Shown in pieces: positions 4,861 through 60,993 of a stretch of 64,000 nt of DNA; position 1 is the first letter of the stretch; each line of letters opens with the position of its first letter. The stretch is from positions 32,001 to 96,000 of IMG/VR virus record IMGVR_UViG_3300037140_000076; one strand, given 5' to 3'. The notes beneath the pieces are model-generated. The model searched no databases, was not told where the DNA came from, and saw nothing but the letters and a program-made list of their open reading frames with translations. A program made the translations under genes and the position numbers. This DNA comes from a virus.

Positions 4861-5460
4861 TTAAGGAATATAAAGAATTGTTCCGTTATCTTTTTGTACA
4901 TCTTCTGCGAATAATTTCCGCGCTTCCTGGAGGTTAAACGGAGCACATATAATATGAAATCCATTTTTAGTAGGCACAACCCCAAATATTTCATCATCTC
5001 CTCTCTTAGCCTGTTTATGTAAACCTGTAATAATAAATATTAACTCATTAACATACTCCGGATCTTTACTATCTACATCTACAACCCACTTCTTATTTAT
5101 TTCTGAACTACACGTTCCAGCAGCCGCCCAGAAAGCCTTTTTAACAGCCTTATAATTCCGGCTTATAATATAATCAACTGTTAACTTTAAAGCCTGTAAA
5201 CCGACTCTCTCAAGGTCCCGGACGTTAAGATTAAGATATGCCCTGGCATTATTCCTTACACAGATTGCCATAATATGGGCCATCTTCTGCCCCAGGTCAA
5301 CCGGACCATAAATGCACATCTGATCAATAACTTCCATATCCTTATCCATAGTGGGATTATCCTTTCTCCTTTTTAGTATCTGAAGAAGGTAGAAGGAATT
5401 TTTTACATGTGTATCGGTAGAAACAAATGGTAAAAGTAAGTCAAAATTATTTATAGACAT
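4861..5460 (-). CDS. conserved phage protein with primase-polymerase-like motifs
   Basis: WVVDVD and TKNGFH resemble AEP motifs I and II. Confidence 0.5.
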   Translation of the reverse strand: MSINNFDLLLPFVSTDTHVKNSFYLLQILKRRKDNPTMDKDMEVIDQMCIYGPVDLGQKMAHIMAICVRNNARAYLNLNVRDLERVGLQALKLTVDYIISRNYKAVKKAFWAAAGTCSSEINKKWVVDVDSKDPEYVNELIFIITGLHKQAKRGDDEIFGVVPTKNGFHIICAPFNLQEARKLFAEDVQKDNGTILYIP

Positions 5461-5734: not shown

Positions 5735-6421
5735 TTAGTTTGTATTTTCATTGTGATGATCAACTCCACCCAGGGGAATTCTCTTTTTCATTATTTCGGC
5801 AATCTCATCAAAGTGATATGGACGGAATTTTGGATGAGCATCTACACCAATATCCATGCATTTGAATTTACAGTCTTCTGGTAGACCCGCCATTTCCCAA
5901 TAAAATTCTTCATTTTCATCACGAGAAAATCTATGGTAATCAGATAGTGTTCCATGACTATGGCCGTATAAATTCCAGTTACCATGATGACCCTTACCCC
6001 ACACCCTCTGAGAGAAATGAGACAAACACATTGATTGACCACCAATTTTCTTATTCATGATATATTGGTTCACTGAAGCAAAAAGACTTTGAATATTAAG
6101 TAATTCAGGCATCTTTATTTGAACTAGTTTATTATTTGCAATATGATGATCATGATTGCCCAGGACCAAATGAATTGTTTTGCAATTAATTTGTTTACGG
6201 AAATTCCAGATCTGATCAATCCCGCCAAAACTCCAATCCCCAAGGTGATAAAGAATATCATTTTCCTTTACAGTCTTATTGATATTTTCAACCAGGCGAA
6301 CGTCATGTTCTTCCAGAGTATCAAGATCCCTACACCTAGATAGATCTGTCCATTCAGAAGTTCCACGCACAATGTTTTTGTGGTGGAAGTGTGTATCACT
6401 TGTAAAAAAAGTACTTGTCAT
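5735..6421 (-). CDS. calcineurin-like metallophosphoesterase
   Basis: SDTHFHH, LGDWSF, LGNHD, GHSHG motifs. Confidence 0.93.
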   Translation of the reverse strand: MTSTFFTSDTHFHHKNIVRGTSEWTDLSRCRDLDTLEEHDVRLVENINKTVKENDILYHLGDWSFGGIDQIWNFRKQINCKTIHLVLGNHDHHIANNKLVQIKMPELLNIQSLFASVNQYIMNKKIGGQSMCLSHFSQRVWGKGHHGNWNLYGHSHGTLSDYHRFSRDENEEFYWEMAGLPEDCKFKCMDIGVDAHPKFRPYHFDEIAEIMKKRIPLGGVDHHNENTN

Positions 6422-6860
6422 AATTACGTTGATTTATTTTATCAAATCTTTTTTTCATGTCTTTAATAATTCCATGCGGAACGTGTCTGCCGGTTAGTAT
6501 CCTTCTCTTAACCTCCCTTACTCTACAAAGCCATAAAGGAGTATTGAAAAATATTATTTTAAGTATAAAATCAGCTTCAGGAAACTGTTTTACGTATCCA
6601 TCCAGGTGGGCAGCATCAACATTTGTTTTATCAATAATAATATTATGTTTAAGATGTATTGATGCTCCTAATAAATGATCCCAACATTTAGTGACTTTTT
6701 TCTCGTCATTGCTATTCTGTTTATACTCTTTACCAAACATCTTCTCCCTTATTTCATCTCTTGAAAGTATAGTAAAGAATCGTTTATCAGGGAACCTTTT
6801 AATAAAGGTTGTTTTACCACTACCTGGAGGTCCACATAAAATTAAAACTACTTTTTTCAT
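6396..6860 (-). CDS. polynucleotide kinase-like P-loop kinase (AAA_33)
   Basis: GPPGSGKTT, LSRDEIR, IIDKTN, R..R lid. Confidence 0.85.
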   Translation of the reverse strand: MKKVVLILCGPPGSGKTTFIKRFPDKRFFTILSRDEIREKMFGKEYKQNSNDEKKVTKCWDHLLGASIHLKHNIIIDKTNVDAAHLDGYVKQFPEADFILKIIFFNTPLWLCRVREVKRRILTGRHVPHGIIKDMKKRFDKINQRNYDKYFFYK

Positions 6861-6958
6861 AATGTTATTTTTCAGATAATATATACATAATAGTACAAAA
6901 TATTATACTTAAATTTATAACCCAACTAACAATAACATATGTTTTATAACTCATAAAA

Positions 6959-42843: not shown

Positions 42844-42951
42844 TTATAACAAAACTCAGTGATAATTATCATTGGATTTAGTGATAAAAATAAAATTATA
42901 ACAAAATTTTGTTATAAAATTTGGTAGATTAAAAAATTCTTCTTAGGTTTG
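42844..42951 (+). promoter_or_regulatory. three 22-bp operator-like palindromes plus a TTTG-N20-TAGGTTTG promoter
   Basis: TTATAACAAAATTTTGTTATAA (42896-42917) abuts the -33 box. Confidence 0.7.
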
Positions 42952-43147: not shown

Positions 43148-43282
43148 ATGCAACAATTTACAATGATAGTGGATAATAGAATTAATGCCGGAGGCGAAAA
43201 TCGTCTTTCAGGGATTCTATTGTAACATCATTAATAATATGTTAAACCTTTAGAACCCTGGATAATAAATCCAGGGTTTTTT
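43148..43282 (+). promoter_or_regulatory. attenuator-like leader 1 (leader ORF, antiterminator, terminator) before tRNA array 1
   Basis: ORF MQQFTMIVDNKN; CAGGGATTCTA (43209) can pair with TAGAACCCTG (43251); terminator AACCCTGGAT-aataa-ATCCAGGGTT-TTTT. Confidence 0.65.
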
Positions 43283-43612: not shown

Positions 43613-44014
43613 ATGAAAATTTGTACACGATGTAAAGATAAAAAAGAACTATCTGAGTTCTATAAAAGTCCAGGCAGTAAGGATGGTTATCGCATTTATT
43701 GTAAAACATGTTATAGTAAGTTACGAAAGAGGACATATAATTTTCAAAAAGCAAAGAAATTATTTTTAAAAAGTAAATACAAAATAACTTTAGAAGAATT
43801 GGAAGTTTTATTTTTAAAACAAAAGAAAAAATGTGCTATTTGTAATGAACCAAATGAAGAAGTGTCTACTAGAAGTGGGTTACATATAGACCATGATCAT
43901 GTTACAGGAAAAGTCAGAGGTTTACTTTGTAAAAACTGTAATCAATTGATAGGCAATGCTAAAGATAATATAAATATTTTAGAAAATAGTATAAAATATT
44001 TATTATGTTCTTAA
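43613..44014 (+). CDS. endonuclease VII-family homing endonuclease
   Basis: CTRC...CKTC N-terminus; Q...CAIC...LHIDHDH.TGKVRGLLC..CN..IG. Confidence 0.9.
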   Translation: MKICTRCKDKKELSEFYKSPGSKDGYRIYCKTCYSKLRKRTYNFQKAKKLFLKSKYKITLEELEVLFLKQKKKCAICNEPNEEVSTRSGLHIDHDHVTGKVRGLLCKNCNQLIGNAKDNINILENSIKYLLCS

Positions 44015-44811
44015 CATTCACAGAAGAAGGGCATTCGTATGAGTCAATTCCAGCCGTTTCCTGGACTTCTGTGACTAAATTAATAGAAAGCTACTGCAAT
44101 CCTTTTGATGAGGAGGATCAAGCTCTGAGGAGTTCACAGAATATGAATTCAAAATGGTTTGGGATGGACCCAGTGGAGATTATCAAACTCTGGAAGGCTG
44201 AAAACCTTCGTTCCACTGATGCCGGAACCTGGGTCCACAACAAATGGGAAAAAAATGTTAGCTCTTTAAAGCACAAAGAGTGGGAAGGAAAGAAATTAAA
44301 AGTTTTTCCTGGAAAATGGGAAGGAGAAACTAAAATTGCACCGGCCCAGGAACTTGAAGAAGGGGTTTACCCTGAACATATTATATATAATGAAAATCTT
44401 CAGGTGTGTGGACAGGCTGATATTGTTAATGTTAGGGATGGTTTTGTAGATGTAATTGATTATAAGACTAGTAAGGAGATTGAGGACCACTCTTATGGAT
44501 TCAAGTATGGAAATGCGAGTATGATGTTGGAACCGGTGAACCATTTAGAGGATTGCAACCTTTCTCATTATGTTCTTCAGCTTGGTATCTATATGAGGCT
44601 CATCCTGTTAAAGAATCCGGCTCTGAAACCTGGTAAACTGATCCTCATTCATGTAAAAATGGATATTAATGAGCTTGATCAATATGGATTTCCTATCCTA
44701 AAAAGGACAAAAGAAAACGGATATAAAATTAAAAGAACAAAAAATTATAATATAAAATACATTGAGAATGAAGTTCGTAGTGTATTAAAAGATCATTATT
44801 TAAAATTGTAG
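44005..44811 (+). CDS. PD-(D/E)XK (Cas4-like) exonuclease
   Basis: GTWVH, CGQAD, IDYKTS, Y.LQLGIY. Confidence 0.85.
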   Translation: MFLTFTEEGHSYESIPAVSWTSVTKLIESYCNPFDEEDQALRSSQNMNSKWFGMDPVEIIKLWKAENLRSTDAGTWVHNKWEKNVSSLKHKEWEGKKLKVFPGKWEGETKIAPAQELEEGVYPEHIIYNENLQVCGQADIVNVRDGFVDVIDYKTSKEIEDHSYGFKYGNASMMLEPVNHLEDCNLSHYVLQLGIYMRLILLKNPALKPGKLILIHVKMDINELDQYGFPILKRTKENGYKIKRTKNYNIKYIENEVRSVLKDHYLKL

Positions 44812-44956
44812 GGTGGCGAAATTGGCAGACGCAACCGCTTGTCTCGCGGTCGTGGATAAGGAAATAGATAGTAGATAGACGGTTGACCAGCAATGAATTA
44901 ACTTCTTTTGTCTCCTGTTGAATCCCCACTTAATGGTTCGAATCCATTTTCTACAG
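44807..44956 (+). ncRNA. tRNA-like RNA (GTC loop) with a ~88-nt variable arm
   Basis: acceptor TGTAGGG/TTCTACA-G, D-arm GCG-AAATTGGCAGA-CGC, ACCGC-TTGTCTC-GCGGT, T-arm AATGG-TTCGAAT-CCATT. Confidence 0.65.
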
Positions 44957-45076
44957 CAATTGATCAGTATGTTGCAGATAGAATCTGATCTGGCCCTACG
45001 CACTGCAAAGCGTTGAGGGAGCGCGTCCGGGATAAGTAGACCTGGTAAGACTACGCTAGGAAAAAGTCTTTTATAT

Positions 45077-45336: not shown

Positions 45337-45416
45337 GGACAAGACGGAGGTTCGAATCCTCCCGGCTATGTATCCGTAATTGGGTGACGCAGTAGTTTAG
45401 TGGTTAGAATATGTCC
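45337..45416 (+). ncRNA. circularly permuted tRNA-like RNA (T-arm, closed acceptor, D-arm)
   Basis: GGACA...GGAGG-TTCGAAT-CCTCC...hairpin...TAGTTTAGTGGTTAGAAT-A-TGTCC. Confidence 0.55.
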
Positions 45417-45419
45417 AAT

Positions 45420-45491
45420 GCTCCTTTCGTCTACTGGCTAGGACATCACTCTTTCCAAGTGATTAAGACAGATCGAAACTGTCAGGGAGTA
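45420..45491 (+). tRNA. tRNA-Glu(TTC)
   Basis: TCACT-CTTTCCA-AGTGA. Confidence 0.82.
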
Positions 45492-45776: not shown

Positions 45777-45850
45777 TGACCTATGGCGCAGCTTGGTAGC
45801 GCAGCACTCTGATAAGGTGAAGGTCCCTGGTTCAAATCCAGGTGGGTCAA
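45777..45850 (+). tRNA. tRNA-Ile(GAT)
   Basis: GCACT-CTGATAA-GGTGA; canonical D- and T-arms. Confidence 0.9.
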
Positions 45851-45893
45851 CTCTGTTCATATTTTTTCTCTGTTCACGAAAAGTGAACAACCT

Positions 45894-45964
45894 GGGCCAG
45901 ATCCCGAAGGCAGGGCATCTCGCTTGCACCGAGAATGAAGCGGGTTCGATTCCCCATGTGTCCA
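45894..45964 (+). tRNA. tRNA-Ala(TGC), irregular acceptor stem
   Basis: TCTCG-CTTGCAC-CGAGA; G3:U70 present. Confidence 0.7.
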
Positions 45965-46035
45965 CTTTTTTCCCAAATTTGGAAATGTGAAAAATTTTCA
46001 CTATATTGAATTCTTCACATCCAAATTTAAATAAT

Positions 46036-50170: not shown

Positions 50171-50340
50171 TTTGGTAATTTCAATTATTTTACATATATT
50201 TGTTTTATGAAACATATCAATTCATATTATTCACTGAGTCTACTCTTATCGTCTTACGATACGGACCTGGGATAATATTGAATTAACCGAACTGATTCGG
50301 AAAAGTTATTACCCTGGGATTTTTATCCTGGGGTTTTTTG
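50171..50340 (+). promoter_or_regulatory. promoter plus attenuator leader 2 before the Leu/Ser/Tyr tRNA array
   Basis: TTTG-N20-TATATTTG; leader ORF 50207-50275; terminator ACCCTGGGAT-tttt-ATCCTGGGGT-TTTTT (50311-50339). Confidence 0.8.
50207..50275 (+). CDS. leader peptide MKHINSYYSLSLLLSSYDTDLG
   Basis: 12 consecutive Ser/Tyr/Leu codons matching the downstream tRNAs. Confidence 0.75.
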   Translation: MKHINSYYSLSLLLSSYDTDLG

Positions 50341-50564: not shown

Positions 50565-50644
50565 CCCTCTGTGGCTTATAGAAATAGGTACACTTAACCG
50601 ACTTAAAATCGGAGCTTGTCATGGTTCGAATCCATGCAGGGGGA
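50565..50644 (+). tRNA. tRNA-Leu(TAA), weak D-arm
   Basis: CCGA-CTTAAAA-TCGG; CATGG-TTCGAAT-CCATG. Confidence 0.75.
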
Positions 50645-50649
50645 CATAC

Positions 50650-50736
50650 GGAAGGCCCCAGTTGACTGAGGTACACGGTCCTGAACACCGCTAGGAGGCT
50701 AATACCCTTGTAAGAGTTGGACTCTCTTGCTTTCCG
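50650..50736 (+). tRNA. tRNA-Ser(TGA)
   Basis: GGAAGGC/GCTTTCC-G; CGGT-CCTGAAC-ACCG; long variable arm. Confidence 0.78.
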
Positions 50737-50854
50737 CTTTATATCTTTTAACATATAAAATCAGTAATATATTACCGATTATATCTAATAACGTATAATA
50801 AGGTAGAATATTTTGCAACAATCGGCAATTTATTACCGATTTTGCCGAAAGTTT

Positions 50855-50938
50855 GGAAAGTTAATTAGCAAGAGCTAACCCTCCCCGCTAAGGAGTGGGA
50901 CCGGGAAACTGGTTGTGGTTCGTGTCCACAACTTTCCG
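50855..50938 (+). tRNA. tRNA-Ser(GCT)
   Basis: GGAAAGT/ACTTTCC-G; CTCC-CCGCTAA-GGAG; long variable arm. Confidence 0.8.
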
Positions 50939-50986
50939 CAAGAGGAAACATTTGGAAGTTTCCTCTTTATTTCGTATGTTTGTAAA

Positions 50987-51433
50987 ATGAAAAAGATATG
51001 TTCAAAATGCAATATTGAAAAAGAAGTACAAGATTTCAATAAACGCACAAACAGTAAAGACGGATATGATCCAAGATGTAGAACTTGTACAAAAGAACGA
51101 GATGTTTTAAGATATACTAAAAATCCCAAACTTTTTAAAGAAAGGGCAAAAGTTAAAAACACTTTTATAAGAGATAGAAACAGACAATTTTTAATTGAAT
51201 ATTTAATTGATAAATCATGTATTGATTGTGGAGAAACCGATGCTGTTGTATTGGAGTTCGATCATATAGAACCTTCAACAAAAATTGATTGTATTTCAGA
51301 AATGATTCCACGATCAAGTATTGAAAATATTAAAACTGAATTAAATAAATGTGAAATAAGATGTGCAAATTGTCATAGAAGAAAAACAGCTAAACAATTT
51401 GGCTGGAAAAGAAAACACCTGGAATTATGTTAA
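50987..51433 (+). CDS. HNH homing endonuclease
   Basis: CSKC...CRTC; CIDCGE...LEFDH...CANCHRRKT; own promoter at 50951-50982; start moved to MKKIC. Confidence 0.88.
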   Translation: MKKICSKCNIEKEVQDFNKRTNSKDGYDPRCRTCTKERDVLRYTKNPKLFKERAKVKNTFIRDRNRQFLIEYLIDKSCIDCGETDAVVLEFDHIEPSTKIDCISEMIPRSSIENIKTELNKCEIRCANCHRRKTAKQFGWKRKHLELC

Positions 51434-51457
51434 GATTAGATAAAACTTTACTCTTAT

Positions 51458-51528
51458 TGATTGAATACCAGGGCAGTAGGCACTGTCTGTAAAACAGAGG
51501 CACGTAGGTTCGAGTCCTACTCAGTCAA
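51458..51528 (+). tRNA. tRNA-Tyr(GTA), short variable region
   Basis: CTGT-CTGTAAA-ACAG; GTAGG-TTCGAGT-CCTAC. Confidence 0.75.
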
Positions 51529-51532
51529 CAAA

Positions 51533-51751
51533 TTATAACTGAATTTTGTTATAAATTTGGAAATTTGAAAAAGTATTATTAAGTTTGCAGTTAAGATTAT
51601 GAAACAGACTATCAACACGCGATTTTTTTGGCATCAACCGACCCCTCAAGGTCCAAGGGCTAAAGTTATGCGTGATACAGATATAGGTTAAATAATCTCT
51701 TTTCTGCTTGCAACTTTTCAACCCTTGATTTTTCTAAACCGAGGGTTTTTT
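51533..51751 (+). promoter_or_regulatory. operator, promoter and attenuator leader 3 before the Pro/Thr/Phe/Gln/His/Arg/Trp tRNA array
   Basis: 22-bp palindrome, TTTG-N20-TAAGTTTG, leader ORF 51599-51691, terminator AACCCTTG...CGAGGGTT-TTTT. Confidence 0.8.
51599..51691 (+). CDS. leader peptide MKQTINTRFFWHQPTPQGPRAKVMRDTDIG
   Basis: 11 consecutive codons TRFFWHQPTPQ matching the downstream tRNAs. Confidence 0.75.
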   Translation: MKQTINTRFFWHQPTPQGPRAKVMRDTDIG

Positions 51752-51755
51752 ATTT

Positions 51756-51831
51756 CTAGTAATGGAGGAGTCCGGCCATCCTCGCGTGCCCTGGAAGCAT
51801 GAGAACCCAGGTTCAAATCCTGGTTACTAGA
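51756..51831 (+). tRNA. tRNA-Pro(TGG)
   Basis: CGTGC-CCTGGAA-GCATG. Confidence 0.85.
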
Positions 51832-51836
51832 CAAAT

Positions 51837-51908
51837 TCCTCTTAAGCTTTAATGGTGAAGCTCCAGTTTTGTAAACTGGTGAATGGGGATCGTTACCTCA
51901 AAGAGGAT
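51837..51908 (+). tRNA. tRNA-Thr(TGT)
   Basis: CCAGT-TTTGTAA-ACTGG; atypical T-loop ATCGTTA. Confidence 0.8.
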
Positions 51909-51992
51909 CGAAGCCGGTTACCAAAATGTAAAAAAGCCGCCAGAACGTGTCTGGTTACTTGTTAAGACAAGTTGTAAAAAAGTTTGGGTTAT

Positions 51993-52067
51993 GTGTCTTG
52001 GGCAGGTCTGGTGACATTGCATCCGTTTGAAGAACGGACTAACAAGGTTCGATTCCTTGAGGATACG
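51993..52067 (+). tRNA. tRNA-Phe(GAA)
   Basis: TCCGT-TTGAAGA-ACGGA. Confidence 0.82.
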
Positions 52068-52072
52068 CTTAT

Positions 52073-52144
52073 TCCTGGATCGTATAACGTGTAGTACAGC
52101 CGTCTCTGACACGGTTAGCAATTGTTCGACTCAGTTTCCGGGAA
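52073..52144 (+). tRNA. tRNA-Gln(CTG)
   Basis: GCCGT-CTCTGAC-ACGGT. Confidence 0.82.
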
Positions 52145-52149
52145 CTTAA

Positions 52150-52220
52150 ACCCCTTTAGCATAAAGGTAATGCTGGTGGCCTTGACCCACCAGAAGTTCG
52201 GTCGGTACGAGCAGGGGGTT
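52150..52220 (+). tRNA. tRNA-Gln(TTG)
   Basis: GGTGG-CCTTGAC-CCACC; atypical T-loop GTCGGTA. Confidence 0.75.
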
Positions 52221-52222
52221 CT

Positions 52223-52292
52223 GTGAATCTAGTTCAATGGTAGAACGGCTGGCTGTGAACCAGGCAATTAGGGTTCGATCCCCGGTTTCACA
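52223..52292 (+). tRNA. tRNA-His(GTG)
   Basis: CTGG-CTGTGAA-CCAG; D-arm GTTC-AATGGTA-GAAC. Confidence 0.8.
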
Positions 52293-52338
52293 CAACGCAT
52301 GAATTTTTAATAAAAATTCATGCAAAATATTAACATAA

Positions 52339-52410
52339 CCTCCTTTCGTTCAACGAATAGGACCTCTGGCAACGAACCAGAAAATAAAGGTTTGATTCCT
52401 TTAGGGAGGT
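52339..52410 (+). tRNA. tRNA-Arg(ACG)
   Basis: TCTGG-CAACGAA-CCAGA. Confidence 0.8.
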
Positions 52411-52415
52411 CAATT

Positions 52416-52484
52416 ACGTGCCAGGCTAAGGCAGCCAAGCAAACTCCAAATCTGTAGGAGATAGTTCGATTCTATCGGTGCGTG
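52416..52484 (+). tRNA. tRNA-Trp(CCA)
   Basis: loop CTCCAAA; GATAG-TTCGATT-CTATC; imperfect anticodon stem. Confidence 0.7.
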
Positions 52485-53048
52485 CAAATTATAACAAAAA
52501 GCAATTATAATTACTTTTTGTGATAATATTCACACAAAATTTTGTGATAAATGTTGGAAGTGTCAAAAGTATTGTTTTACTTTGCACCCAACTTTCACCA
52601 GTAAAGGACACGCCACCACGAAAAAACAATGATATGAAGTGGCGCAACTACGTCTTGGCTTTTTTTGGGGGAACCTACGGAGGGGGGCCTCACCCCTCTC
52701 ATATTATTGATTTATAATACGTTAAATGATTACCGGGTAATTTACTGGGCCTGGTAAAGCTTATAATTTGGTTATGTGCTTTGAATTACATATATTTACA
52801 GAGGTAAAAAGCACAAAAAATATAAAAAGAGATTCAAGGGGATCATTTAAGATATTACCATCACAAAAATTCCTATCTGGTTATAATCAAAAAACGTAAT
52901 CTGCGTCCATTTAAAACGTTTAAGCAGATGGCAGTGAATTAGGAAACACTGTTGCCCGGTGGTATAAAAGATGCAATTTATTGCATCTTTTTTTATTTAA
53001 CATAGTCTTAACTTGGTTTTATAATAAAAAACAGTTACATTTGCAAGT

Positions 53049-56127: not shown

Positions 56128-58230
56128 ATGAGTATAATAACCAGTCCGGAGTTTTTTATTAATATAAAAAAGATACCGGATAAAGCTTCCAAAGAATATC
56201 TGCCCTTCTTCAGGGCAGAAATGAATAAAGTAAAACAGGGTGTAACCATTGCTGGAGTAAGAATTCCAGGATGGTTATATTGGCATATAAACCACTGGGT
56301 AATTGATATAGATGTTCCAGTACAAGGCACAAATATTAATTATGTTGAGCGTAGACCATCACATCCTTTTTTAAGGGATAATGATTGGATTATTGCAGAA
56401 CATATTGAAAGAGCAGAAAGTTTAAAAAAAGGTGTATTACTTCTTGGTACTCGTCAGCTTGGTAAAAGCGAAATAGGAGCTTCTTATAACGGGAGAAGAG
56501 GTATTGCTTTTGAAAATAGTCAAAATGTTATTGCTGGTCTTTCTGATCCGGATTTAAAACTTCTTCTTGGTAAGTTGGATAGAGGGTTTACAAATCTTCA
56601 TCCCTATTTTAAACCAATAAAAATAATAAACGATCCTAAGAAAGAAATTATTCTTGGATATAAAGACCCCCAGGGAGAAAGAGTTAAATATTCTGAATTC
56701 CTAATTCGAAATTTAGATTCAGGAAAGAATACTGAAAACTTAGCGGGTCCTACTACTTCTTCACTTACTTTGGATGAGTGTGGTAAAGGAGATTTCCTTG
56801 AAGCCTTCATTGCTGCTAAACCTGCTCTTGAAACCGCTTATGGTTGGAGAGGTATGCCTTTATTTATAGGGACCTCTGGTAGCTTTGATAAGGCTGAGGA
56901 TCTTCAAAGGTTCCGGGAAAATCTTGACACTTATAATTTTATTGAAGTTGAACTTAAGGATGAAAAAAAACAGGATATATATTTTATTCCAGGTTGGATG
57001 TCATCTCGTGCGAAAAGAAAAAAAATAAGATTATCTACTTATAAAAAAGTACCCAAAGGAAGCGAACTTGATACTATTGCTATTCATGTTGTAGAAAACC
57101 CTGAAGAAGAAATACAAAGAATTTTAGATTATAGAGAGTCATTAAAAGTTGCTGGAGAAATAACATTGATGAAGAAAGAGACAATGTATTATCCTTTAAA
57201 TGAAGAGGAATTATTTTTAATTGATGATAGTGATAATATATTTTCTGATGTAAAAGAAATATGTAAAGCTCATTTACTTTATTTGGAAACAATTGAAGTG
57301 AGTGAAGAATATGGATGGATGACAAGAGACGAAAATGGTAAACCAAAATTCGTTCCAACTAAGAATGCTTTTCCTATTAAAGATTTTCCTGCTGGAGAAC
57401 ATGAAGATAAAGATGCCCCTATTATTATATGGTCCCATCCTATGGAAGGCCAAGAATTCGGGATTTTGCATGTAGGTGGAATTGACCCTTATAACCAGGA
57501 TGAATCATTTTATTCCCCTTCCCTGGGAACCCTATATATTTATCGTAGGACATATGATCCTTTAAAAGGCAATCATCAAGAATCATTTGTTGCTTCATAT
57601 TCTGCTCGTACAAAGACTATATCTAAATGGAGGGAGCAAGTAAGACTTCTTTTAGAATATTACGGAGCTACTGCTTTACCGGAAAATGAAGAGCCGGGTC
57701 TTATTCGTTGGTTTGATGAAAAACATATTGGACATTATCTTGAAGACGGTCTTGATCTAGCAAAGGAAATAAACCCCAATACCACCAGTAATAGAAATAA
57801 AGGATTATCAGCTACTACAGCAAATATAAGATATGGAAATGGTCTTTTAAAATCTCATATTAACGAAGATCTGGTTATGGGCCAGGACCCTTTAAGCGGG
57901 GAGAATATAATAAAGAAAGGAGTAATCCGGATAAAGGATAAGGTTTTATTAAAAGAGGTAATTGCTTATACCCCTGCCATGAGCATTAAAAGTAGGGCAG
58001 GGACCTCTTCAAATGCAAGGACTAAAAAGAAAGCTACCAACGTTGACCGGATTGTAGGGGCAAGACATGCTCTGATCCTGGCAAAATTAAAAGATAAATA
58101 TTTTCCCCTTGCTAAGATAAAGAACCCCCTCTCTACAAATAAGCCTGAAAAAAAGGCTATTAAAAGCCCTTTTACAGGTATAAACAGTCCTTTCGGATCT
58201 CGAAGATTTCCCTTCGGTGGAAAATTATAA
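56128..58230 (+). CDS. terL: terminase large subunit
   Basis: TRQLGKS Walker A, LTLDECGK Walker B, GTSG, GGIDPY nuclease, ENE, NVDRI. Confidence 0.9.
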   Translation: MSIITSPEFFINIKKIPDKASKEYLPFFRAEMNKVKQGVTIAGVRIPGWLYWHINHWVIDIDVPVQGTNINYVERRPSHPFLRDNDWIIAEHIERAESLKKGVLLLGTRQLGKSEIGASYNGRRGIAFENSQNVIAGLSDPDLKLLLGKLDRGFTNLHPYFKPIKIINDPKKEIILGYKDPQGERVKYSEFLIRNLDSGKNTENLAGPTTSSLTLDECGKGDFLEAFIAAKPALETAYGWRGMPLFIGTSGSFDKAEDLQRFRENLDTYNFIEVELKDEKKQDIYFIPGWMSSRAKRKKIRLSTYKKVPKGSELDTIAIHVVENPEEEIQRILDYRESLKVAGEITLMKKETMYYPLNEEELFLIDDSDNIFSDVKEICKAHLLYLETIEVSEEYGWMTRDENGKPKFVPTKNAFPIKDFPAGEHEDKDAPIIIWSHPMEGQEFGILHVGGIDPYNQDESFYSPSLGTLYIYRRTYDPLKGNHQESFVASYSARTKTISKWREQVRLLLEYYGATALPENEEPGLIRWFDEKHIGHYLEDGLDLAKEINPNTTSNRNKGLSATTANIRYGNGLLKSHINEDLVMGQDPLSGENIIKKGVIRIKDKVLLKEVIAYTPAMSIKSRAGTSSNARTKKKATNVDRIVGARHALILAKLKDKYFPLAKIKNPLSTNKPEKKAIKSPFTGINSPFGSRRFPFGGKL

Positions 58231-58335
58231 CAAAATTTAGTGATAATTATAACAAAATTTTGTGATAATTTGTTATAATTTAAAAATAATTGGTAATTTT
58301 GTAGTTACTTTAATTATAATTTGTTATAACTCAAT

Positions 58336-60993
58336 ATGTTACCTGAAAGTACACCAATAGATTCGTTACCGGCCCAGATGATTTCTTATAAGCAGAAGGT
58401 AGCGAAGAATAAAAAATGGGGTAAGGCTTGCATGGATGCCTTGGAAACGCTTGGTCGTAGACAATTCTATGAAAATCTGCGTTTTGTAGAGAACTATCAG
58501 ATGGTGAATGGTAAATTTATGCCCCACCATTATATTGAAGAAGAAGGGTATAAGGACATGATTACCCAGTTGACCAGGGAGTTCGAGATTCCGTCAACAT
58601 TAAGACATTACGACATTATAGGTAAGCTCATCAATAATCTCACAGAAAAGCTTAGTGAATTCCCCGATGTATTCCGGGTTGAAGAAATATTCGAATCAGA
58701 TTTAACGAACGAATATGTCCGTACTCAAACGGATCTTATGCATAAATCGGTACAGGCCGATATTAACAACGAAATAATGGCCCGTTTAGTGGCTGAAGGG
58801 ATTGATCCCAATAAACAAGATTTTAAATCTGAAGACGAAGCTATGCAGTATCAGAAAGAGATTCAGGACCTTAAGCAGTCCATGACTCCTCCTCAGATAC
58901 AGAATTATATGGCTACCTCCTGGCAAAGTCAGGGAGAAATATGGGGGGAACATCAACTTACCCTGGACCGTCAAAGATATAAGCTGGATGATATGGAACG
59001 TAAAGAGTTTAGAGATATGCTCTTTACTGATCGTTGTTTTCGTCATTACTTTCTTACTGCTGACGGTTTTGAACAGGAGACATGGAATCCATTAAATACT
59101 TTTGTTCATCTGGCTCCGGAACTTGATTGGGTTCAGGACGGAGATTATGCAGGACGCATAATATACTATACAAAGGCAGATATTATTAAAAGATATGGTT
59201 GGAGAATGAATGATAAAGATCTCAAGGCCCTGGAATCGTTGGATGAGGATGAGGCCGAGAATCTGGATTTTAGTGGTTATCCTTATAAAACTTATGCTCC
59301 TTTCGCAGATCATAAAGCTTATGATATTATAAGAAGAACAAGCGGTTATGATCCAATTCAGAACATACCACTTCTCGGAGATGATACTCTTTTTCAAATA
59401 ACTAATAATCTTCCTTTTGTAGATCGTCAGGCTGGTTTATTTAGGGTAACTGAATCATATTGGCTTAGTCAAAAGAAAATTTCAAAATGGGTTTATATTG
59501 ATCCTCAAACAGGGATGTTAACAAAAGATCTCGTAGATGAAAATTTTGTTTTACCAGACGGAGCCACTGAAGTGAAAGGTGATTTTTTGGATGGTAGTGA
59601 TGTCAATACATTATATACTACCTGGGCAGATGAGCTTTGGTTTGGAATAAAGATTTGTTTTGCTGTTAAGGATACTGACGCTATTTATCTGGGTCTGGAA
59701 CCATGCGATTTTCAATTTAGAAGTGATGAAAATCCATTCCTGGCAAAATTGCCGGTATGTGGACGTATATTCAATAATCGTAATGCTCAATCAATGTCCC
59801 TGGTAGATATGGTTAAACCGCATCAGATTGGATATACTATGTGTATGAATCAAGCTTATCAAATACTTGAAAAAGAAATCGGAAAGTTCATGGTTTGGGA
59901 TGTAGCATTTTTTAACACCTTAAAAGATTGGGGTGGAGAAGATAGTTTCCAGAAAGTGGCATTACTTGCTAAGGAACTCGGTCATGTGTTCGGAGATACT
60001 TCTCCGACTAATATGAAAGGAGCCAATCCAGGAAATACTTTACCGAAAATGGTAGATATGGATCTTACTGCTCAACTTGTTAGTCGTATGAAGGCAGCAG
60101 ACTATTTTGAACAAAAGGCACTTTCACAATTAGGTATTAGTGAACAATTTATAGGGCAAACAAAGGCTACTGAAACGGCTGAAGGAATAAAGAGTTCTAT
60201 CAGTCAGACTCAGCTTACTGTTCAGAAATATTATACAGATTTTTTCCAGTATAAACAACAGTGTCTTTCAATGAATTTAGATATTGCTCAATATGTCCAA
60301 TCTAAAAATAAAGATTTTACAATTAATTATACTAAATCTGATCAGAGCCGTGTATTTATTAAGATGCTTGGTACTGATCTTTTGTTAAGAGATCTTCATG
60401 TGTATGTTGTTAATTCTCAACAACTATTGCAGCAAATGCAACAGTTGAAACAGTTATTCATGAGTAGTAACACAACAGGAGCTTCACCTCTTGATCTGGC
60501 AGAGGTTATTACTGCTACCTCTCCATCAGCTATAAAGGTCAAGCTCAAAGAATCTTTTGAAAAACAACAGCAGCAACAGCAGCAGGAATTCCAGCAGAAG
60601 CAAGATCAGATTAAGGGTGAACAAGACACCGCTATGGAGAAGGAAAATCGCCAGGATAATAGAAATGATCAAAACAATACAACTAAGATCCAGGTTGCTG
60701 AGATTTTGGCTACTAAGGGTTCTACTAAAGAAGCGGCCCCTGAACGTTATGATCAGCAAAGCCAGGGAGATTATGCCCGTTTCAATGCTAAGGCTCAAGT
60801 GGATAGCGATAAAACAAACTTGCAGCGTGAAAAAAACGAGATCGAAAGAGAAAAGAATACAAACACTAATGTATTAAAAGCTAAAGAATTAGATATAAAG
60901 AGGGAAGCAATCGCTGCTAAGAATAGAGAATCTAGTGCAAAAGTTCACGTAGAAAAAATAATTCACAATAAACGTGACCGGAAGACGAAATGA
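58336..60993 (+). CDS. portal protein (crAss-like)
   Basis: 885 aa directly after TerL; LRHYDIIG..IN.L, SLVDMVKPHQ..Y, coiled-coil C-terminus. Confidence 0.8.
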   Translation: MLPESTPIDSLPAQMISYKQKVAKNKKWGKACMDALETLGRRQFYENLRFVENYQMVNGKFMPHHYIEEEGYKDMITQLTREFEIPSTLRHYDIIGKLINNLTEKLSEFPDVFRVEEIFESDLTNEYVRTQTDLMHKSVQADINNEIMARLVAEGIDPNKQDFKSEDEAMQYQKEIQDLKQSMTPPQIQNYMATSWQSQGEIWGEHQLTLDRQRYKLDDMERKEFRDMLFTDRCFRHYFLTADGFEQETWNPLNTFVHLAPELDWVQDGDYAGRIIYYTKADIIKRYGWRMNDKDLKALESLDEDEAENLDFSGYPYKTYAPFADHKAYDIIRRTSGYDPIQNIPLLGDDTLFQITNNLPFVDRQAGLFRVTESYWLSQKKISKWVYIDPQTGMLTKDLVDENFVLPDGATEVKGDFLDGSDVNTLYTTWADELWFGIKICFAVKDTDAIYLGLEPCDFQFRSDENPFLAKLPVCGRIFNNRNAQSMSLVDMVKPHQIGYTMCMNQAYQILEKEIGKFMVWDVAFFNTLKDWGGEDSFQKVALLAKELGHVFGDTSPTNMKGANPGNTLPKMVDMDLTAQLVSRMKAADYFEQKALSQLGISEQFIGQTKATETAEGIKSSISQTQLTVQKYYTDFFQYKQQCLSMNLDIAQYVQSKNKDFTINYTKSDQSRVFIKMLGTDLLLRDLHVYVVNSQQLLQQMQQLKQLFMSSNTTGASPLDLAEVITATSPSAIKVKLKESFEKQQQQQQQEFQQKQDQIKGEQDTAMEKENRQDNRNDQNNTTKIQVAEILATKGSTKEAAPERYDQQSQGDYARFNAKAQVDSDKTNLQREKNEIEREKNTNTNVLKAKELDIKREAIAAKNRESSAKVHVEKIIHNKRDRKTK

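Follow-up and report, generated by a model that had tools for sequence, protein, structure and literature searches.

Reading frames matched to tRNA arrays suggest leader-peptide attenuation of tRNA genes in a bacteriophage

How might a bacteriophage adjust the transcription of the transfer RNA (tRNA) genes that it carries? Many phages possess such genes, and what they are for is disputed, the proposals being compensation for codon usage, replacement of degraded host tRNAs and escape from tRNA-cleaving defences; the control of their expression has been little studied. The question is raised by a locus in the virus record IMGVR_UViG_3300037140_000076, at which a promoter, a short open reading frame (ORF), a terminator and an array of eight tRNA genes follow one another. 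The genome has 112,374 base pairs (bp) and 35% G+C, and we analysed its bases 32001-96000, a stretch of 64,000 nucleotides that we call the window; unless another record is named, positions refer to it. A preliminary description of this DNA had proposed that the ORF, here called leader 3, is a multivalent attenuator. The results presented below indicate that leader 3 is likely to be a trp-type leader-peptide transcription attenuator that feeds back on tRNA supply.

The codon run of leader 3 and its tRNA genes

The ATG of leader 3 lies 11 nucleotides 3' of the -7 box of its promoter and its stop codon 30 nucleotides 5' of the terminator arm (51722). The ORF contains an 11-codon run (Table 1), with the residues that the preliminary description had given, and this run names exactly the seven amino acids of the eight downstream tRNA genes, as had been claimed, the Trp gene being a weak call. 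When all six frames of the 112 kb are considered, the run is the only stretch of at least 10 residues drawn from this set of seven. These residues make up 0.258 of the residues in long ORFs, and the chance of an 11-codon run that covers all seven is 2.4e-8 per position; no such run occurred in 100 shuffled genomes. The codons also suit the anticodons of the array. Under standard wobble 9 of the 11 are readable by them, the other two (ACC and CCU) require four-way reading by U34, and none is left unmatched. The Arg codon of the run is CGA, which accounts for 3% of the Arg codons of the genome and is read by Arg(ACG), and codon 3 of the leader is CAG, matching the second Gln tRNA. With default settings ARAGORN reported seven tRNA genes in the array, the Trp gene being found at 85% thresholds only and falling below the Rfam gathering score of 29 bits; its fold is cloverleaf-like with a poor anticodon stem. 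Relatives have a Trp(CCA) call at the same array position, with up to 64.5 bits.

Table 1 Features of the leader 3 locus, in positions of the window
Feature	Position	Strand	Remarks
22-bp palindromic motif	51533..51554	.	abuts the -33 element of the leader 3 promoter
Promoter, Bacteroidota sigma-A type	51556..51587	+	-33 TTTG, 20-nucleotide spacer, -7 TAnnTTTG
Leader ORF (leader 3)	51599..51691	+	30 codons, ATG to TAA
Region 1, protector helix 5' strand	51616..51632	+	inside the regulatory run
Regulatory run, 11 codons (codons 7-17)	51617..51649	+	Thr Arg Phe Phe Trp His Gln Pro Thr Pro Gln
Region 2, switch segment	51648..51674	+	partner either region 1 or region 3
Region 3, antiterminator 3' strand	51709..51732	+	includes the terminator 5' arm
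Intrinsic terminator	51720..51755	+	hairpin 51720-51747; U-tract ending 1 nucleotide before tRNA-Pro
tRNA-Pro (UGG)	51756..51832	+	ARAGORN default; Rfam 48.1 bits
tRNA-Thr (UGU)	51837..51909	+	ARAGORN default; Rfam 39.5 bits
tRNA-Phe (GAA)	51993..52068	+	ARAGORN default; Rfam 38.3 bits
tRNA-Gln (CUG)	52073..52145	+	ARAGORN default; Rfam 45.9 bits
tRNA-Gln (UUG)	52150..52221	+	ARAGORN only; not listed by Rfam
tRNA-His (GUG)	52222..52293	+	ARAGORN default; Rfam 49.3 bits
tRNA-Arg (ACG)	52339..52411	+	ARAGORN only
Probable tRNA-Trp (CCA), weak	52416..52485	+	Rfam 25.1 bits; ARAGORN at 85% thresholds

The same layout of promoter, ORF, terminator and array recurs before two other arrays in the window. 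Leader 2 (ORF 50207-50275) contains the longest Leu/Ser/Tyr run of the genome in six frames and ends 35 nucleotides 5' of a strong terminator, which is followed by Leu, Leu, (Leu), Ser, Ser and Tyr genes. Leader 1 (ORF 43148-43225) is followed by a terminator and Val, Arg(UCU) and Asn genes and, further 3', by Met, Gly, Glu, Asp and two Ile genes; its run uses the amino acids of the tRNAs that follow, Arg being encoded by AGA and Ile by AUA as well as AUU. Leaders 2 and 3 are, judging by their first residues and the C-terminal Asp-Thr-Asp-x-Gly that they share, paralogues.

Leaders and arrays among relatives

Relatives of the phage were taken from an alignment of the terminase (TerL), which provided 80 metagenome loci, designated here by L numbers, and a few viral contigs; closer TerL relatives (66-77% identity) lie outside this compared set. 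Homologues of leader 3 are present in L013, L015, L017, L022, L023 and L094 (Leptolyngbya phage Lbo-JY46, PP438436.1, 6120-6185), in genomes whose TerL identity runs from 67% down to 38%, with 41% for Lbo-JY46. The leader 3 of a near-identical strain (IMGVR_UViG_3300050123_000043) is identical and for that reason uninformative. The homologues are ORFs of 21-30 codons located 3' of a Bacteroidota-type or similar promoter element. In most leaders only a few nucleotides separate the promoter from the ATG, in L022 and L023 about 60-70. Their stop codons fall 24-34 nucleotides before a hairpin and U-tract, which immediately precede an array of Pro, Thr, Phe, Gln, His, Arg and Trp genes. Each homologue names all seven amino acids within a run of 11-13 codons, in an order that varies: three genomes have His behind Trp, three others have it ahead of Thr-Arg, and the Lbo-JY46 leader places Gln-His-Thr-Gln between Arg and Phe. 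Several tRNAs in the arrays of the relatives needed relaxed ARAGORN settings, Rfam on short stretches or a reading of the anticodon loop. Rfam searches of short stretches, together with the anticodon loops, located the His, Phe, Gln and Pro genes that blastn of the window tRNAs against these arrays had been too insensitive to find.

Homologous leaders track the content of their arrays, a behaviour on which the preliminary description had made its proposal depend: the seven-isotype array occurs together with a full leader in 8 genomes, and arrays of other content are tracked as well. In more distant phages the tRNAs are distributed over arrays of other composition, and each leader corresponds to the array behind it (L036 a and b, L037 a and b, L083 and Cellulophaga phage phi17:2). 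The array of L036 a (Pro, Gln, His, Arg, Leu, Leu, Ser, Ser, Tyr, Glu) is preceded by a run of 13 codons with all eight amino acids, and that of L037 b (Ala, Gly, Asp, Asn, Trp, Thr, Arg(UCU), Phe, Cys) by a run of 17 codons with all nine. All six amino acids are found both in the 12 codons of L083 (Pro, Asp, Asn, Thr, Gln, His) and in the 11 codons of phi17:2 (Pro, Glu, Gln, His, Leu, Leu, Arg), whose leader occupies 16394-16326 on the minus strand of L095 (NC_021798.1). Additions to an array are likewise accompanied by codons, since a strain with two extra Lys tRNAs in its first array has a Lys codon in leader 1, and Lbo-JY46, with Cys tRNAs in its first array, has six Cys codons in leader 1. 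Over 22 leaders the own array matched the leader better than swapped arrays did (permutation p<5e-5), and of the 82 amino acids represented in the arrays of 12 non-redundant pairs, 81 are also found in the corresponding leader (odds ratio 81; Fisher p = 4e-17). The choice of Arg codon follows the anticodon: it is CGA, CGU or CGC in 8 of 8 leaders that precede an array with Arg(ACG), and AGA in front of arrays with Arg(UCU), in a genome in which AGA and AGG together provide 65% of the Arg codons. Equivalent short ORFs are present at 22 of 22 promoter/terminator/tRNA junctions, and the leader stop lies 21-35 nucleotides before the terminator arm in 20 of these 22 leaders.

Simpler searches gave little. 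A blastn search with 50800-53000 against deposited phages returned nothing useful, a single-protein search with the neighbouring gene of 362 amino acids was matched by its HNH part only, and a single-sequence TerL search and a degenerate DNA pattern of the leader N- and C-termini each recovered only the near-identical strain.

Two deposited isolates deserve a separate remark. In Lbo-JY46 (PP438436.1) the array promoters at 1790-1830, 5350-5385 and 6080-6115 fit the Bacteroidota -33/-7 pattern; the phage was deposited with a cyanobacterial host, and the stated host may deserve checking. In phi17:2 (NC_021798.1, L095; minus strand, 15470-15351) gp077 as annotated has for its start codon a TTG that lies within a promoter. 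The frame after this promoter has no ATG, is rich in Thr, Gly, Ile, Val, Asp, Ala, Arg and Tyr, and ends before a terminator and an array of Ala, Ile, Gly, Met, Asp, Thr, Val, Arg, Met and Tyr genes; it looks like a second leader of this phage.

Helices, proposed mechanism and its rivals

The unconstrained minimum-energy fold of leader 3 pairs 51616-51621 with 51669-51674 and 51626-51632 with 51659-51665, and forms the terminator too. The preliminary description had noted a segment (51654-51667) complementary to sequence around the terminator and had suggested that the pairing sequesters the terminator 5' arm. The segment falls within region 2, and constrained folds bear out both points: 51655-51659 pairs with 51722-51726 and 51662-51666 with 51713-51717, segments that overlap the 5' arm. 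With a ribosome modelled at the start or in the middle of the run and the terminator 3' arm not yet made, 51648-51672 pairs with 51709-51732, and in the mid-run model 10 of 10 terminator arm bases pair with 51649-51659. The antiterminator draws on the ORF sequence directly 3' of the codon run.

This behaviour is general in the leader set. The full fold forms the terminator in 19 of 20 leaders, and when the modelled ribosome sits at the run start or in mid-run, the terminator arm is paired upstream, as an antiterminator, in 20 of 20. With the ribosome at the run end, and region 2 therefore covered, the antiterminator pairing is gone in 12 of 20 leaders and no more than 3 arm bases stay paired in 17 of 20. 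A leader and its own terminator arm form a duplex with a mean energy of -15.3 kcal/mol; with the arms of other leaders the mean is -10.0 (p<5e-5). Over six homologues, 4 of the 9 pairs of the terminator stem have changed in a compensatory way, and MAFFT with RNAalifold on six homologues recovered the terminator and no other helix; the other helices were analysed sequence by sequence, since the alignment loses its register upstream. When each of the seven leader 3 homologues is folded to minimum energy, its run is paired with region 2 and its terminator is present, and the protector and antiterminator arms vary in sequence between relatives and keep their complementarity. Two parts of the peptide are conserved, Thr-Arg where the run begins and Arg/Cys-Asp close to the C-terminus. 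They coincide with the two strands of the protector helix, and the conservation of the peptide can therefore be explained without a functional peptide.

A U-rich motif, UUUUCUGCUU, lies between the leader stop and region 3 and is conserved in the four closest copies of leader 3 (window 51696-51709; L013 6190-6203; L015 3732-3745; L017 1254-1268). L022, L023 and L094 lack this motif, whose role may be to signal pausing or processing.

How the locus is laid out, how its codons match the array, what is conserved and covaries, and which helices exclude one another can all be read directly from the sequences, and on this basis we propose the following series of events. Host RNA polymerase would start at the promoter, with a ribosome translating the 30-codon leader close behind. 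When the seven charged tRNAs are plentiful, the ribosome would clear the run and cover region 2, the hairpin would form, and transcription would stop at the U-tract just before tRNA-Pro. If any codon of the run is decoded slowly, the ribosome would remain on region 1, and the free region 2 could pair with region 3, tying up the 5' arm of the terminator and allowing read-through into the eight tRNA genes. In a leader that is not translated, regions 1 and 2 would pair and the terminator would form, and the default is predicted to be off. The net effect would be negative feedback on decoding capacity, because the output consists of the tRNAs that read the sensor codons: the set would be made when decoding by that set is limiting. 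We infer from this design that ribosomes translate the leader, that the host couples translation to transcription, and that the signal is the amount or the charging of the tRNAs. The multivalent attenuator of the preliminary description is supported by the anatomy, the codon match, the helices and the conservation. Its 'OR gate' was an extrapolation, and a response to summed transit time is equally open, since most codons of the run occur once.

Several points weigh against this proposal. Five of the seven amino acids occur only once or twice in the run. Classical attenuators have several tandem regulatory codons, and with so few repeats the sensitivity of leader 3 to a mild shortage is doubtful. 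Nor can the 11 codons act alike, because a ribosome stalled at the last of them masks region 2; in the models, stalls at the final codons of the run should be ineffective. The terminator of leader 3 is the weakest of the family (-7.3 kcal/mol) and is missed by a consensus terminator scan, and its antiterminator is also weak (-10.3 kcal/mol), its own arm ranking 13th of 20; with both elements at the weak end of the family, this copy may be leaky. Some tRNA calls needed relaxed thresholds or anticodon loops read by eye (Trp in the window; His in L013, L015 and L017), and the homologues are non-independent samples. In the arrays of Bacteroides phage crAss001 the promoter lies directly before the first tRNA, with neither leader nor terminator, and because these arrays have no leaders the device is, on present genomes, clade-restricted and no general feature of crAss-like phages. 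Finally, to our knowledge, coupling of transcription and translation has not been established for Bacteroidota hosts.

Of the other explanations, the one that survives best accepts a translated leader with matched codons and assigns to it a read-out or signal other than feedback from tRNA supply; we regard it as unlikely. In its several forms, the leader would be a general sensor of translation status or amino-acid starvation, a timer of infection stage that opens the arrays while the host decodes these codons poorly, or a device through which the position of the ribosome controls RNA processing, RNA stability or the access of Rho in place of the intrinsic terminator. Stalling reports the availability of charged tRNA, so that tRNA amount and charging are inseparable, and the operator-like palindrome 5' of the promoter (Table 1) points to further, protein-based control of the same promoter. 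The one published case of translation-responsive control of a tRNA array that we found uses a stress-responding repressor (PMC8421152, PMC10272220). A general stress sensor, however, needs no run with one codon per isotype of its own array and few other codons, nor would its choice between CGH and AGA have to follow the Arg anticodon. The hairpin and U-tract are conserved in every case with a covarying antiterminator, which argues for intrinsic termination as the regulated step.

A second explanation dispenses with the ribosome. The run, which is by construction complementary to the anticodons of the array, would pair directly with those of tRNAs or their precursors and so switch the terminator, as T-box leaders are established to do by binding tRNA. 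We consider this very improbable. The run always lies in one open frame, with an ATG near the promoter in most leaders and a stop 21-35 nucleotides before the arm (20 of 22), and its third positions vary synonymously within the range of wobble, including the inosine-type reading of CGA. The region has no match to the T-box or any other Rfam family, and three-base pairing outside a T-box scaffold would be unstable. The least credible alternative, an ordinary small peptide gene with its own terminator whose composition matches by coincidence or shared ancestry, could draw on the partial order (Thr-Arg ... Phe-Trp) and the C-terminal Arg/Cys-Asp motif conserved in closer relatives, but it would have to reconcile a chance of about 2e-8 per position with a match that recurs independently for arrays of differing content, with L015, L022, L023 and L094, which keep the composition and shuffle the order, and with conserved stretches that are protector helix strands with compensatory change, so that RNA pairing explains them.

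If leader 3 and its relatives are attenuators, they could have a further role, in counter-defence or as sensors of host takeover. We offer this tentatively. The arrays would be held in reserve and released set by set when the matching host tRNAs fall, whether through anticodon nucleases, other tRNA-targeting defences, host shut-off or the codon mismatch of a new host. The result would be a self-tuning replacement decoding system, and the leaders would then record the tRNA losses that the phage expects.

Genomic setting and comparison with known systems

The tmRNA gene and the 20 tRNA genes of the genome (ARAGORN default) all lie within the window. Its large terminase (56128-58230) and portal (58336-60993) genes belong to the families of crAss-like phages. 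The intergenic promoters match the Bacteroidota pattern (-33 TTTG, a spacer of about 19 nucleotides, -7 TAnnTTTG), and for this reason the host is probably a member of the Bacteroidota. In many of the phage genes the ATG is only 4-6 nucleotides downstream of the -7 box, which is consistent with leaderless mRNAs and translation starts. The promoter motif of leader 3 also heads leader 2 (50171), an HNH gene (50951), the leader 1 operon (42920) and the portal gene (58269). The palindrome that abuts the leader 3 promoter has 8 copies in the window, against 0.29 expected, with the half-sites TTATAAC / GTTATAA and the variant TTATCAC. Its sites (42844-42917, 51533-51554, 52489-52526 and 58225-58268) hold one to three tandem copies, and every one stands directly 5' of a Bacteroidota-type promoter; similar palindromes precede the leader promoters of L013 and L017. 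It is a probable operator for a dimeric DNA-binding regulator of the phage, and would add a second layer of control.

Homing-type nuclease genes are situated inside the tRNA region (50915-51433, 43613-44014 and 44005-44811). An HNH gene with its own promoter at 50951 separates the Ser and Tyr genes of array 2, and there are also an endonuclease-VII-like gene and, between arrays 1 and 2, a PD-(D/E)XK gene. In relatives the insertions are found elsewhere in the arrays, such as between Thr and Phe in L022, and L023 has a ferritin/Dps-like ORF (6332-6868). Stretches that resemble tRNAs, with good T-arms, are left uncalled by default ARAGORN and Rfam at 44810-45076, 45337-45420, 45850-45965 and 50577-50740. 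They include an Ala(UGC)-like loop near 45895-45965 and a Leu(UAA)-like element at 50577-50636 (Rfam 21 bits), and the long element at 44810-45076 may be an interrupted tRNA. The segment 52590-52720, 3' of array 3 and of a further promoter-like site, is G-rich, structured and non-coding in appearance. When compared with L006 1260-1340, it is a place of sharp divergence between two otherwise identical strains.

The searches of known families and of the literature place the leaders apart from described systems. The stretch 51556-51755 matched none of the Rfam leader families (Trp, His, Leu, Thr, Phe and others), even at expectation values up to 10, and had no match to the T-box (RF00230: Stem I, specifier loop, T-box sequence), its run lying in a frame from ATG to stop. 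In the literature searched we found no description of leader-peptide control of tRNA genes. An attenuator-like Phe leader, conceivable for the tRNA-Phe genes of E. coli, was not seen at pheV, the one gene examined. The likeness to a T-box is one of principle, in that an RNA leader reads tRNA status by the logic of codon and anticodon and switches an intrinsic terminator; the T-box differs in binding uncharged tRNA without a ribosome, through its Stem I, specifier and T-box elements, and in controlling synthetase and amino-acid genes. A closer parallel in output is the trn operon of Anabaena sp. PCC 7120, a long tRNA array that is induced by translational stress and controlled by the ribbon-helix-helix repressor TrcR, which binds direct repeats at the promoter (PMC8421152, PMC10272220); these two papers mention no attenuation, leader peptide or terminator. 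Like the trn operon, the phage arrays are supernumerary and horizontally mobile, and by the proposed mechanism they, too, would be kept low and turned on when translation is impaired; control of the trn operon acts at the promoter and is not isotype-specific.

If the proposed mechanism is correct, these phages gauge how fast each codon is decoded and regulate tRNA synthesis by feedback from it, a homeostat on the decoding machinery itself, where classical attenuation acts on amino-acid supply. Leader-peptide attenuation would be extended to seven or more amino acids per leader, to an output of non-coding RNA and to viruses, as well as to Bacteroidota-type promoters with probable leaderless starts. 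The same design is present in two deposited isolates, phi17:2, whose host Cellulophaga baltica is cultured, and Lbo-JY46. For annotation, such ORFs of 20-35 codons are missed or mis-called, as with the leader-like frame under gp077 of phi17:2.

Among bacterial attenuators, the pheM leader of E. coli pheST uses Phe codons to attenuate a synthetase gene. It resembles the phage leader, as proposed here, in being an attenuator on a component of the decoding machinery that responds to charged tRNA; unlike the phage leader, it has a synthetase as its output, senses one amino acid and is chromosomal. The enterobacterial leaders of biosynthetic operons include multivalent ones, ilvGMEDA (Ile/Leu/Val) and thr (Thr/Ile), and those for a single amino acid, trp, his, phe and leu. 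With these the phage leaders share a promoter-proximal short ORF rich in regulatory codons and the set of protector (1:2), antiterminator (2:3) and terminator (3:4) helices, in which the default is predicted to be terminated and a stalled ribosome to select the antiterminator. The phage leaders differ in being encoded by a phage, in their Bacteroidota-type promoter, in a start that is probably leaderless or nearly so, and in having no similarity to known leader families. The leader analysed here names seven amino acids and those of relatives name 3 to about 11, most of them by single codons, whereas the enterobacterial leaders name two to three in tandem. The enterobacterial leaders control biosynthetic enzymes; the output of the phage leaders is tRNA genes, and the proposed loop would close on the very molecule that is sensed.

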